IMG/VR virus record: IMGVR_UViG_3300005805_009577
Span: 64,001 to 128,000 of that record
Origin: a virus
Length of the DNA: 64,000 nucleotides
Strand: one strand, 5' to 3'
Below the pieces are notes generated by a model. The model was not told the DNA's origin, did not search any database, and saw nothing but the letters and a program-made list of their open reading frames with translations. Position numbers and translations under genes: made by a program. Each line of letters opens with the position of its first letter. Position 1 is the stretch's first letter. This document shows, piece by piece, positions 20,449-60,191 of this stretch.

Positions 20449-20521
20449 GGCACCTTGACCCGAGAGGCTAGGGAGCGGATTGCAAATCCGTTTTACGCCG
20501 GTTCGAATCCGGCAGGTGCCT
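20449..20521 (+). tRNA. tRNA-Cys(GCA)
   Basis: ggcacct/aggtgcc acceptor stem; gcgga-ttGCAaa-tccgt anticodon arm; gccgg-ttcgaat-ccggc T-arm; CCA not encoded. Confidence 0.95.
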
Positions 20522-55323: not shown

Positions 55324-55396
55324 GGCCCCATAGTATAACGGTTCAGTATATCGGGCTTTCATCCCGAAGATCGGAGTTCGATTCTCCGTGGGGTCA
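55324..55396 (+). tRNA. tRNA-Glu(TTC)
   Basis: ggcccca/tggggtc acceptor stem; tcggg-ctTTCat-cccga anticodon arm; T-arm with ttcgatt loop. Confidence 0.93.
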
Positions 55397-55522: not shown

Positions 55523-55595
55523 GGGTCATTAACTCAATTGGCAGAGTAGCTGGCTTTTAACCAGTAAGTTCTAGGTTCGAGTCCTAGATGACCCA
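55523..55595 (+). tRNA. tRNA-Lys(TTT)
   Basis: gggtcat/atgaccc acceptor stem; gctgg-ctTTTaa-ccagt anticodon arm; ctagg-ttcgagt-cctag T-arm. Confidence 0.95.
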
Positions 55596-56170: not shown

Positions 56171-57341
56171 GAAGAAAAAATTATGAGCCATCCCGACCCA
56201 CTTTTTGATTATGAAAATTGTGAAGAAAACGATATTGAAGAAAGTGGAATAGACGGCATAGAAGGTTGCTACGACAAAAACGGATTATTTCACGAATACA
56301 TGAAAGAGGAAGGTTGGTACGGCCCTTTTGAGGAAAATAAATGAATTACTCTAACGAACACACAACAGATTGGGCTATTGGCGATAAAGATATGGAAACC
56401 ATCCTTTCTGCCCTTGAACATTATACAGAAAGCATGGTTAAGTTTCGTCATGTTCCCGGTATGCACGATTATATTACCTATGTTGAAGAATTGTGCCAAA
56501 GTATGGAAAATGCTTGGCATCCTAAACAAGAGGAAGAAAAATGAATACGAATGAAATTATTATTGATAAGATTATGGAAATCATTAAAGAAAACGATGAT
56601 TACACTGCTGCCGATGTAATCAAAAACATAATGCTTGAATTGGCAAGTGTTGGTGGAAATGTTGATCGAGAAGGCAGCGTCAATAGAACTATAGATATGG
56701 TTTGTGAAGAAACCTTTGGTTAAAAACATGGTTAAAATAAATTGGATAGGATTTGCTGGGGTAGAGAATATAAGAGACTTGTTGAATTATGGAACTAGAT
56801 TTAATAGTGGTGTGCCATATTCTTTTTTTCGAATTGGACCCATAATTATTAAAAAATATTTATAGGAAAAAACAATGACACGCGGAGAAATGATTGAGTT
56901 TGTTAATGACCAAACAGAAAAAACCGATAGAGAAAATGCTATCAGGCTGCTTGCGTATTTTCTTGAACACGACGACCCAGTAAATCCCGAGCTTTATTTT
57001 CAGCAAATGGTTGGCGGAGAATAATGGGAAATTATCACTACGATATATTACTTTTGCCGGTTATAGTCATGGCAATTATTGCATTGTTCACTAGCCTTAA
57101 TGATTATTAAATGAGAAATCCTAGTCAATTAATTAATATTCTAAATAATAGCAGCGGATCTGAGGGCTTTGAAAAGTTTGTCGATCAACTGACATTTGAA
57201 GAAATGACACAAATAATGATGATTGCAGAGTTGATTATCGAATGTCCTGAGTTGAGCAGTAAAAAGAATATTGATTTTAAAGAATTCTTAAATTATATGC
57301 AAAATAAGCGGAAAGCATTTATAGAAAAAAATTAGATAGCT

Positions 57342-57983
57342 TTGGTAATGATTAACAAAGGCATAAATCTATTCAAGAATAGAGTCAAAGACCCTCATGA
57401 ACTGGATTTGCTTTCTTCTCAAGAGAACATAAGCCTAGTCAAACAAATACTTGAGGGAGATAAACCAATAAGTTTTTTGGAAAGCATCATTGACATAGAT
57501 TATATAAGAAATAATGCTTTTGATGAAGACTTTATTGAAATGTTTGATGAAAACCGCACAGAAGAAATAGTGATTACTTTTTTCTCTTATGGCCATCCAA
57601 GTATTTATGGTTATTTTTTAAAAAGCAAAGATAACTTTAATAAGTACTTTAATCATATAAGTCATGAAAGAGTTCGAGAAATTAAAAGAATCTTTAAATA
57701 TTACAAAATAAATCCCAAAGAATTTGCTGTTAAAAATAATATAATTTTTCATACTTTGTTTGAAATTTGTTGTAAATATTTTAAAGATCTTGATGAAATT
57801 AACGGAGCCAAATATGAAGAATTACATGAATTGTGTAATTATTTTAAAATAAGTGTTAAAGATAGTTTTAAGGATGAAAATAGACTCTACAGGTGCAAAA
57901 TCTGTAGTGAAAGTTATAGAAATAAATTTCTTTTGGTTGAACATTTAGAAAAAAAACATAACTTAAAAATACTTAAAATTTAA
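57342..57983 (+). CDS. protein with C-terminal classical C2H2 zinc finger (paralog B)
   Basis: CKICSESYRNKFLLVEHLEKKH; LESIIDIDYIR...GHPSIY...LCNYFKISVKDSFKD aligns with 27411. Confidence 0.75.
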   Translation: MVMINKGINLFKNRVKDPHELDLLSSQENISLVKQILEGDKPISFLESIIDIDYIRNNAFDEDFIEMFDENRTEEIVITFFSYGHPSIYGYFLKSKDNFNKYFNHISHERVREIKRIFKYYKINPKEFAVKNNIIFHTLFEICCKYFKDLDEINGAKYEELHELCNYFKISVKDSFKDENRLYRCKICSESYRNKFLLVEHLEKKHNLKILKI

Positions 57984-58058
57984 TCTAAAATAAGAAAAGA
58001 TTTAAATATATGTTTATTTTAAATAAATTCAATCTAAATCTAGGTACGCTATAGCGTT

Positions 58059-58203
58059 GCATCAGGAATGTATGCCATTGAGCGTACAAGCAACCTGCCG
58101 ACGCAAGGCAAGGTGCTTTCAGTAACACTTGTTATTGAGATGTGCGTGAGAGGATTATCTCACGAACTATATTGCGTGGGTTATTATAACCCATTTCTGA
58201 TGC
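58059..58203 (+). ncRNA. candidate multi-stem structured RNA
   Basis: gcatcaggaa(tg)/(ca)tttctgatgc long-range helix enclosing cgtgaga/tctcacg, tgggtta/taaccca and tgcc/ggca hairpins. Confidence 0.5.
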
Positions 58204-58212
58204 GTTCCCGTT

Positions 58213-58569
58213 TTGGTGAATGCAATGATCAACCAAAAAGATTTATCTTTCCTAGAAGAATACTTTACTGATAAAGCTAATGAACGCCTTCCAGAAGGCA
58301 AATGGCCAATGTATATTTATAAAAATTCTATAATTGAATTCAAAGAAAATGATATACGAGTAGTAAACTTTTTAGAAGATCATGTAATAATAAAAATAAG
58401 TCCAAAAACTTATAACTGTTATCCCTCTTGTGCTGCATTTTGTGGTGGTGCATCAAAAGAAGTTATTGAAAAAACAAAAAGAACAATGAACCCAGAACCA
58501 ACAATATTGGCTGTGCCTAAAAAATTATCTAATACTATATTGTCTCTTAAAAATTTTAATAATAAATAA
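58213..58569 (+). CDS. hypothetical protein, IPxKLA C-terminal family
   Basis: Ends LAVPKKLSNTILSLKNF. Confidence 0.55.
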   Translation: MVNAMINQKDLSFLEEYFTDKANERLPEGKWPMYIYKNSIIEFKENDIRVVNFLEDHVIIKISPKTYNCYPSCAAFCGGASKEVIEKTKRTMNPEPTILAVPKKLSNTILSLKNFNNK

Positions 58570-59354
58570 AAATAAAAAACGCTGAAATTCATATTTATAA
58601 AAACCTTTAATTATTAGTATCCATGCTTCCACTTCCGAATAAAATTACATTTTTTGAGCAAGAACTAACCAAAAAAACAAAAGAAGAGTTAGAAAAAATG
58701 ATCAAAGAAATAGAAGAGTATAAGCCCATTAATTGGCTCAGTGCTATCGCTAAAACGTCTCAATTAGAAATACTCAAAAAACTACATATAGAAAAATAAA
58801 AATGAATAGTCAAAATATATTAGCGGCTGAGTTGGCAAATTATTTAATTAATAACTCTAAAGGAGAACGCTTGCTTGAAAGAACCGTAGCAATAATTGTT
58901 GCCTTAGAGTATGAGTCGGCTTGTATTTTCTTTAAAATAATAATGAGTGAAGGAAAAGAAGAAATAAAAACAAAAGCGTATCACAGTAAAATAATTGATA
59001 AGTGGATAAAAAAGAATAACAAAAAGATTACCGAGGATATTACTAATGGCAACGGAGTATTTGCAAGAGCAATTTAAGAAATACAATGGAAAAACCAGCT
59101 AAAAACACAAAAGGATATTTGCTATACAGTCCTTTTCGCAAAAAAGATCCATACTTTTTTAGAATTTATAATGAAGATGGTAGTTTTACTGACTATGATT
59201 TGAATATTGAAGAATTAGAAATAGAGATAATTTCAGAATTCGCTAGTTTTTATGAAGAAGGTGAAAACAAAAGAATAGATTGGAGTAGCGAAACTTTAGG
59301 CAAAAAAAATATTTAAAAATAGTATAAATAAAATAAACACCAGAGGATTAAATC

Positions 59355-60191
59355 TTGATAAAAACTATAGGGATAATAGGACAGGGATTCGTTGGAAATG
59401 CAGTAAAAGAAGGAATGAAAAGTTTTTTTAAAATAGAGACTTTTGATATTATAAAAGAAAAGTCTACAGCAATTAGTGTCGATGAGCTTTTCAAAAAATC
59501 AGATGTTATATTTGTTTGCTTGCCTACTCCTATGAAAAAGTCTGGCGAGTGTGATATAAGTATAATAGAGCCAGTAGTATCAAATATAAACTCGCTAGGT
59601 TCTAAGACAGTAATTTTAAAATCTACAATTCCTCCAGGAACTTGTGATTATCTTCAAAATAAGTGTGAAAATTTAAAAATAATATTTAACCCAGAGTTTT
59701 TAACAGAAGCGGCAGCAGTACAAGATTTTATTAATCAAAATAGAATAGTCTTAGGCGGAAAAGACGACAATGCTCTAAATGATGTTGAAGAAATGTTTAA
59801 AAAAGCTTTTCCAAAAGCAAATATCATAAAGACCACAACCAAAATAGCAGAATCAGTAAAATATGTAACAAATTGCTTTTTATCATTAAAGGTTTCTTTT
59901 GCAAATCAGCTTTATGACTTGTGCAATACTTGCGGCATAAACTATAATGAAGTAGTAGAAATATCAAAACTAGATAATCGTTTAGGAAATAGTCATTGGA
60001 AAGTTCCTGGGCCGGATGGAGATAGAGGGTATGGCGGACATTGCTTTCCTAAAGACATGCAAGCTTTTTTAAAGTTTGCAAAAAATAATAATATAGACAT
60101 GTCTTTAATAGAAGAAGCCATAAAATATAATGACACTATTAGAAAAGACAGAGACTGGGAAAAAATGAAGGGCAGAGCAGTCTCGGAGTAA
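59355..60191 (+). CDS. UDP-glucose/GDP-mannose dehydrogenase family protein (short, no C-terminal domain)
   Basis: IGQGFVG, VCLPTP, KSTIPPGT, NPEFLTE, KYVTNCF, GYGGHCFPKD catalytic Cys. Confidence 0.9.
   Translation: MIKTIGIIGQGFVGNAVKEGMKSFFKIETFDIIKEKSTAISVDELFKKSDVIFVCLPTPMKKSGECDISIIEPVVSNINSLGSKTVILKSTIPPGTCDYLQNKCENLKIIFNPEFLTEAAAVQDFINQNRIVLGGKDDNALNDVEEMFKKAFPKANIIKTTTKIAESVKYVTNCFLSLKVSFANQLYDLCNTCGINYNEVVEISKLDNRLGNSHWKVPGPDGDRGYGGHCFPKDMQAFLKFAKNNNIDMSLIEEAIKYNDTIRKDRDWEKMKGRAVSE

Follow-up and report, generated by a model that had tools for sequence, protein, structure and literature searches.

A probable SAM-I/IV riboswitch in the leader of an orphan gene of a large uncultured lake phage

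SAM riboswitches and metabolite sensors carried by phages

Structures are reported for two types of SAM riboswitch, that of SAM-I by Montange and Batey in 2006 and the crystal structure of the env87 aptamer, a SAM-I/IV RNA, by Trausch et al. in 2014. SAM-I (S-box, RF00162) and SAM-IV (RF00634) share the ligand core of the clan, which consists of P1, J1/2, P3 and the junction to P1, and both have a K-turn or internal loop in P2 as well as PK-1; SAM-I is without P5 and PK-2, and SAM-IV is without P4. By contrast, SAM-I/IV as described from cryo-EM work combines an unsplit P2 with a P4 and with P5 plus PK-2, and it lacks PK-1 (PMC6890682); the P2 of this class is likewise unbroken in supplementary file 1 of the earlier description of the family (PMC2864571). 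In the SAM-I/IV seed alignment of Weinberg 2010, many members have the CAUCAGGAG variant of J1/2 and many have an optional hairpin between P3 and the 3' strand of P1, while GAUGUGCG is followed by a hairpin and the 3' tail is complementary to the P3 loop (PMC2864571).

Riboswitches are described as rare in phages, where the glutamine type has been described in marine myophages (PMC9004378). In Melnitz, Pelagibacter phage Mosig and cyanophages this bacterial metabolite sensor, the glnA RNA, precedes a phage gene and not a host metabolic gene (PMC9004378). The locus described here shares that arrangement, but its ligand, fold and regulated gene all differ from those of the glnA RNA riboswitches. 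In the literature searched, the coverage of which was incomplete, no paper describing a phage-borne SAM riboswitch was found.

The window, i.e., the whole stretch of 64,000 nucleotides that was analysed, comprises bases 64001-128000 of an AT-rich, 181-kb record of an uncultured virus, which is estimated to be 78% complete. A segment of it that had been flagged in a sequence-only reading as a structured RNA is a GC island (44% G+C, versus 18-30% around it) and lies between a 213-aa ORF (57342-57983) and a 114-aa ORF (58225-58569), all on the + strand. In our view 58059-58223 is very probably (at roughly 0.85) a complete SAM-I/IV riboswitch, made up of an aptamer and an expression platform, that forms the 5' leader of the 114-aa ORF, and the assignment of the RNA to the SAM-I/IV class (Rfam RF01725) appears firmer still. 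The carrier is a large uncultured lake phage, so that the sensor itself is ordinary and its location in a phage is what has rarely been reported. The same RNA precedes the gene for a homologue of the 114-aa protein, P0002, which is encoded on two short contigs, L239 and L240. The features of the locus are as follows:

58043-58048, + strand: GGTACG, core of a promoter-like motif that recurs in the phage; TCT(A)GGTACG is also found in L239
58047-58056: palindrome CGCTATAGCG, overlapping GGTACG
58059-58063, + strand: 5' strand of P1, GCAUC, pairing with 58139-58143 (Rfam alignment)
58064-58067, + strand: J1/2, AGGA (Rfam alignment)
58068-58271, + strand: overlapping ATG-initiated ORF of 67 aa (ORF list)
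58069-58088, + strand: P2 hairpin, continuous, 58069-58075 / 58082-58088 (Rfam alignment)
58089-58117, + strand: P3, AGC-AA-CC-UGCC / GGCA-A-GG-U-GCU, 58089-58099 / 58107-58117 (Rfam alignment)
58100-58106, + strand: P3 loop of 7 nt, GACGCAA
58119-58138, + strand: P4 hairpin of 8 bp with loop ACUU, 58119-58126 / 58131-58138, between P3 and the 3' strand of P1 (folding)
58139-58143, + strand: 3' strand of P1, GAUGU; the GAUGUGCG box is common to many seed members (Rfam alignment)
58145-58164, + strand: P5 hairpin CGUGAGA / UCUCACG, 58145-58151 / 58158-58164 (Rfam alignment and folding)
58172-58177, + strand: 3' strand of PK-2, UUGCGU; its partner is ACGCAA of the P3 loop (58101-58106); the same in L239
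58177-58193, + strand: linker hairpin UGGGUUA / UAACCCA, -8.7 kcal/mol; phage-specific and absent from the bacterial relatives
58192-58204, + strand: putative switching strand CAUUUCUGAUGCG, complementary to 58058-58070 (5' strand of P1, J1/2 and start of P2)
58202-58223, + strand: hairpin covering the SD, 58202-58209 / 58215-58223 with U217 bulged; SD GGUGA at 58215-58219
58225-58569, + strand: putatively regulated ORF of 114 aa (P0001), which with P0002 makes up an orphan family of two

Architecture and class of the RNA

At gathering thresholds, Rfam returned three tRNA genes only in the window, all on the + strand (20449-20521, 55324-55396 and 55523-55595). A permissive Rfam scan of the 500 nt at 57900-58400 matched the whole of RF01725 (model positions 1-99) to 58054-58181 with 38.6 bits (E = 8.8e-5), 2.5 bits under the Rfam gathering score of 41.1 bits, and the homologous element of L239/L240 reached 42.1 bits, which is above it. 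The score of the window copy is lowered by three insertions, the largest of which is the hairpin 58119-58138 between P3 and the 3' strand of P1. On the entire 181-kb record this was the sole match to RF01725 (E = 7.6e-6), and neither SAM-I (RF00162) nor SAM-IV (RF00634) matched anywhere in the record at E up to 10. The element does match a known Rfam family, contrary to the sequence-only reading, in which no Rfam consensus was recognised.

The core boxes of the SAM clan, CAUC-AGGA, CAACC, AAGGUG and AGAUG, are intact at 58060-58067, 58091-58095, 58110-58115 and 58138-58142, respectively; the variant CAUCAGGA is common in the published SAM-I/IV seed. With nucleotides numbered by the last digits of their positions, the tandem A61-U141 / U62-A140 and G66 agree with the core of the SAM-I clan. 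Four sets of core positions, which in the SAM-I structure shape the SAM pocket, are all present in the window, namely the tandem A-U/U-A in P1, the G of J1/2, the AA bulge and, within GGUG of P3, the U that stays unpaired. The P3 of the window also has the same CAACC and AAGGUG boxes as the seed (PMC2864571).

Around this core, the P1-P4 junction, the unbroken P2, P5 and a 6-bp PK-2 that ties the P3 loop to the 3' tail amount to the full SAM-I/IV architecture, and every SAM-I/IV feature of the cryo-EM description was found in the window element (PMC6890682). P2 is a continuous stem of 7 bp with neither a K-turn nor an internal loop, and its loop has no PK-1 partner because J3/4 is a single nucleotide, U118. 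The element thereby differs from SAM-I and SAM-IV, both of which have these two features, and it combines P4, P5 and PK-2. The first P2 pair of the RF01725 model is mismatched, as A.A in the window and A.G in L239, while an alternative register, U69-A88, restores a pair at the base of P2. PK-2 consists of six Watson-Crick pairs, compared to a mean of 3.0 for shuffled tails, of which 2/200 reach six. The pentamer UGCGU occurs three times (58143-58147, 58173-58177 and 58201-58205), each copy being complementary to ACGCA of the P3 loop and all being kept in L239; where the switching strand meets the SD hairpin, the third copy could be an alternative partner of the P3 loop.

Compared with RF01725 as a family, the element has the end-to-end match, P1, the unbroken P2, the P3 boxes, the optional P4, P5, PK-2 and the position as a 5' leader on the gene strand in common. 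What sets it apart is that it sits in a phage genome, with AT-rich stems, that an extra linker hairpin follows PK-2, and that the gene behind it is an orphan and not one of the methionine or SAM genes that usually follow RF01725 leaders. Its position is that of a cis element, since it lies on the same strand as the ORF and ends 2 nt before the start codon, an arrangement kept in L239.

Folding of the + strand gave a minimum free energy of -72.1 kcal/mol, versus -49.7 +/- 4.4 for 200 shuffles (z = -5.05, with 0/200 as good); for the minus strand z was -4.04. The sequence-only reading was right in seeing an unannotated, multi-branched structured RNA, which lies on the + strand, and the three hairpins named there are present: UGCC-GACGCAA-GGCA at 58096-58110 in P3, CGUGAGA/UCUCACG at 58145-58164 (P5) and UGGGUUA/UAACCCA at 58177-58193 (the linker hairpin). 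To these are added the hairpin 58119-58126 / 58131-58138 and the loop-tail pseudoknot. The GGTACG motif and the palindrome that overlaps it are both present as described before, and the palindrome is not kept in L239, which has GTTACAGTGC there. TNNGTACG occurs in 11 copies in the window, 11/11 of them on the + strand. Together with the conservation of GGTACG, these all-plus-strand copies suggest that the leader starts just upstream of P1, and the GGTACG region is the probable start region of the riboswitch transcript.

Bacterial relatives and the expression platform

A pattern made of the core boxes recovered 30 metagenome contigs, from soil and freshwater, and 2 MAG contigs, from a Myxococcales and a Verrucomicrobia genome (loci L241-L272), which reduce to 18 distinct leaders of 51-60% G+C. 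P2, P4 and P5 are at the same places with different sequences in 18/18 of these leaders. Downstream, and outside the search pattern, PK-2 lies at +21 to +28 after P1 in all of them, and a strand YCYUGAUG(C), which is complementary to the 5' strand of P1 plus J1/2, invariably follows 3' of PK-2; behind this strand comes a terminator, made up of a GC-rich hairpin and a U tract. The order of parts is thus identical to that of the phage leader up to and including the switching strand that pairs with the 5' strand of P1 and J1/2. Beyond this strand, an intrinsic terminator complete with U tract ends the GC-rich bacterial leaders, whereas the phage copy is without a U tract and the SD hairpin occupies the place of the terminator. 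One type of bacterial leader (L246) precedes metK, and it is the only one of this subtype to do so; most of the others (L241, L243, L244, L251 and similar soil contigs) are followed by short ORFs without a family match or by none on that strand.

A covariance model was built from the bacterial leaders and used to re-align 20 leaders. In this alignment 92.5% of the cells are paired, versus 73.8% with shuffled partners and at most 43% when partners are slid by 1-3 columns, counts that lean towards the structure because the rows were fitted to the model and had been chosen with a pattern fixing the core boxes, and that understate the pairing of the window because its row is out of register in P4. 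Changes on both sides are seen at 29/38 pairs, including every pair of P4 and P5, such that 9/9 model pairs covary in P4, 8/8 in P5 and all in P2; P4 itself is found in 20/20 compared leaders, with differing sequences. PK-2 reads ACGCAA/UUGCGU in the phage and UGGAGA/UCUCCA in the nearest bacterial leaders, and since the phage P3 loop forms no more than 4 pairs with bacterial tails, and vice versa, as against six between the phage loop and the phage tail, loop and tail have changed together. Primary similarity is confined to the conserved boxes, so that none of these leaders can be the recent source of the phage copy.

The recurrence of the switching strand in bacterial leaders bears on a long helix between 58059-58070 and 58192-58203 that was regarded in the sequence-only reading as the closing stem of the RNA domain. 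The helix itself is real in the sense of pairing potential, with 12 pairs including one G-U (G66-U196), or 13 pairs when U58-G204 is counted. Because the same strand recurs in the bacterial leaders, it is better read as the switching helix of the expression platform, which does not close the domain and instead competes with P1 and J1/2, by the same device as in bacterial SAM-I/IV leaders. In the bacteria this strand would overlap the terminator and compete with it, and in the phage it would compete with the SD hairpin.

From pairing potential, conservation and analogy with the bacterial relatives, the following steps can be proposed. By homology, SAM would bind between P1 and P3 and lock P1 and J1/2, so that strand 58192-58204 stays free, the full SD hairpin can form and translation would be blocked. 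Without SAM, 58192-58204 would invade and pair with 58058-58070 over 13 bp, thereby breaking the aptamer core, and the three basal pairs of the SD hairpin 58202-58223 would be lost, allowing translation of the ORF. The 114-aa protein would consequently be made when SAM is low. By analogy with the other members of the SAM clan, the gene is likely repressed at high SAM and expressed when SAM is scarce; that this OFF logic operates through the competing helix seems a reasonably good bet. The 13-bp switching duplex (58058-58070 / 58192-58204) has a predicted energy of -18.5 kcal/mol, versus -5.8 for P1.

Whether translation, rather than another output, is what the switch controls is a more evenly balanced question, for which we would put the chances at about half. 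The SD, GGUGA in the window and GGAGA in L239, lies 5 nt before a conserved AUG, and the three differences between the two phages within the SD hairpin fall in its loop or bulge only. Once the switching helix takes G202-G204, this hairpin keeps only -1.5 of its -8.1 kcal/mol in the window, and with the equivalent nucleotides taken it keeps -2.0 of -8.5 kcal/mol in L239; when the aptamer is constrained, i.e., locked, the unpaired probability of the SD is <=0.02. However, the switching helix and the SD hairpin overlap by 3 nt only, and in ligand-free folds of the whole leader the SD guanines are still mostly paired in both phages, in the window via a non-conserved local hairpin and in L239 via the shortened one. 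It is therefore mainly the energies of the isolated hairpins that speak for a translational read-out, which on this modelling is plausible but not secure. The hairpin UUUUGGU/ACCAAAA at 58211-58238, which is formed in the ligand-free fold of the window, was set aside as not conserved in L239.

The same uncertainty gives some room to a reading in which the aptamer is the same but SAM controls premature termination, Rho access or RNA decay, or in which a stable riboswitch-derived sRNA ends near 58177-58193 plus UUUCU. An output of this kind would be in keeping with the intrinsic terminator found in 18/18 bacterial relatives with the same switching strand, with the short U-rich run directly 3' of the hairpin 58177-58193, and with the fact that whole-leader folding of the ligand-free state does not cleanly free the SD. 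It is nevertheless unlikely on balance, as a scan of the phage leader detected no + strand terminator and no hairpin followed by a proper U tract, and the hairpin that replaces the terminator holds the SD in both phages, with the differences between them avoiding its stem.

Nucleotide identity between the window and L239 is 91% for the leader and 93% for 58059-58204, as compared to 86% for the upstream gene and 64% for the downstream gene, the protein product of which is 41% identical. Thus, neither flanking gene is as well conserved as the RNA, whose substitutions preserve its structure: in P4 of L239, A121-U136 is replaced by G-C, a compensatory change, and G122.U135 by A-U, while in P2 U73.G84 becomes U-A and U69-A88 becomes U.G, giving one compensatory and two wobble-to-Watson-Crick changes in the stems. 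The change in the P3 loop falls outside PK-2, both indels (L239 has lost 1 nt from the P5 loop and gained 2 nt in the loop of the linker hairpin) are in hairpin loops, the helices of the platform are invariant, and the start codon and its GAAUGCAAUGAU context are kept. Judging from this pattern of substitutions, the RNA is kept by selection as RNA, although covariation within the phage lineage is thin because there are only two phage copies; three more contigs carry the 114-aa ORF with an RNA identical to that of the window and so add no variation.

An aptamer maintained in this way could still be a relic or have been re-tuned, such that the SAM-I/IV fold no longer binds SAM, or binds SAH or an analogue made by the phage, and is kept for another reason. 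The sub-threshold Rfam score of the window copy, the mismatch of the first model P2 pair in both phages (A.A and A.G) and the absence of a SAM link for the orphan gene could all be taken in this sense. We consider this improbable, since the strongly conserved core boxes are all intact, the RNA is conserved above both flanking genes with structure-preserving substitutions, and the U69-A88 register restores the basal pair of P2. Less probable again is an independent RNA that acts in trans (sRNA, protein sponge or ribozyme) and is closed by 58059-58070 / 58192-58203, as had been suggested in the sequence-only reading. The unconstrained minimum-free-energy fold does use the long helix as a closing stem, but the element matches a riboswitch family over its full length, a start codon of the same strand follows 20 nt downstream, and the long helix cannot coexist with the conserved core of P1 and J1/2 and bears the same relation to the terminator in bacterial leaders; the element is thus more readily understood as a cis-acting riboswitch leader of the next gene. 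That the 67-aa ORF at 58068-58271 is a real gene and the structure incidental has its ATG-initiated frame in its favour but is refuted by L239, where the loss of 1 nt from the P5 loop puts the ORF out of frame, with stop codons after ~40 codons, so that the peptide is not what is conserved. The refuting test named in the sequence-only reading, homologues keeping the peptide in place of base pairing, thus comes out in favour of RNA. Altogether, the sequence-only reading is supported as to the structured nature of the RNA, its selection as RNA and the lack of conservation of the peptide, and not as to the kind of RNA and its recognisability.

The putatively regulated gene, its distribution and implications

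The 114-aa protein that is presumably controlled by the SAM-I/IV riboswitch is an orphan: when 5.8 billion proteins were searched by word index, only the protein itself came back, and an exhaustive HMMER search of 1.84 billion representatives added one relative, P0002 (123 aa, 41% identity). No match was found in Pfam, PHROGs, NCBIfam, PADLOC or PDB sequences, and no usable match in the ESM Atlas; the AlphaFold2 model is unusable, with a mean pLDDT of 39. Nothing known connects the gene with SAM or methionine, and neither a SAM lyase (PF23780) nor a MetK SAM synthetase (PF02773) was found in the 181-kb record, which is 78% complete. As to the neighbouring genes, the upstream 213-aa ORF (57342-57983) has a weak C-terminal motif resembling a C2H2 zinc finger (Pfam E = 8e-4, below the cut-off), and its homologues in related phage contigs are 80-89% identical at the amino acid level, with an in-frame TAG shortening those of L277-L281. 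Four genes downstream of the riboswitch, a 278-aa ORF (59355-60191) matches the N-terminal and central domains of UDP-glucose/GDP-mannose dehydrogenase, with no match to the C-terminal domain.

A blastn search of 57300-58650 against 50,697 phage records gave no match, and no relatives of the 114-aa, the upstream 213-aa or a 91-aa ORF were found in IMG/VR. There, a specific pattern found nothing; a loose pattern, CATCAGGA...CAACC...AAGGTG, matched 117 loci, none of which proved similar to the element in blastn, in nhmmer or under a pairing filter; they are regarded as chance matches, as are all three matches of a pattern restricted to P3. A broader clan pattern gave 118 loci, and true SAM-I/IV RNAs were present in 4/37 pre-filtered IMG/VR records. 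Two of these four, G021, which is a provirus, and G018, were inspected; both are rated complete, and their canonical SAM-I/IV riboswitches score 51 and 48 bits, respectively, across L237:1501-1613 (-) and L238:1501-1613 (-). The riboswitch of G021 precedes an 86-aa ORF without a family, as is also true of the ORF at the same place in G018, and genes with a MutS domain and a rhodanese domain (G018) or for a GNAT acetyltransferase (G021) are nearby. The surroundings of these two riboswitches are probably host-derived sequence.

Relatives of the upstream gene on contigs L276-L282 are without the riboswitch. In L276 (1556-1600) the upstream gene and approximately the first 35 nt of the leader (GGTGC...ACATCGGGAAT) are followed by unrelated sequence and a different gene, which looks like a recombination joint inside the riboswitch at which the cassette was replaced. 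Since the riboswitch is missing from L276-L282 and L276 switches to other sequence after ~35 nt, the riboswitch and the ORF behave as an exchangeable cassette.

SAM is required by many restriction-modification and related defence systems, and some phages encode SAM lyases that destroy it. Against this background, one may speculate, with considerable reservation, that the phage reads the SAM level of its host, and that low SAM, whether caused by starvation, by a SAM-consuming or SAM-dependent defence, or by destruction through a competing phage, turns on an orphan protein that acts on SAM-dependent processes, e.g., in counter-defence or as a modulator of SAM metabolism. If true, this would be a metabolite-sensing circuit owned by the phage and not the leftover of a captured host leader. 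The finding extends the family without adding a new mechanism, because the class of the RNA and its general logic were already known; what it documents is a known aptamer that has been rebuilt with AT-rich stems and with a ribosome-binding-site hairpin in place of the bacterial terminator. With its intact SAM sensor ahead of an orphan gene, this phage would provide a handle on whether phages read the SAM status of their hosts, and the same pairing of sensor and gene would provide one on the role of the 114-aa protein.
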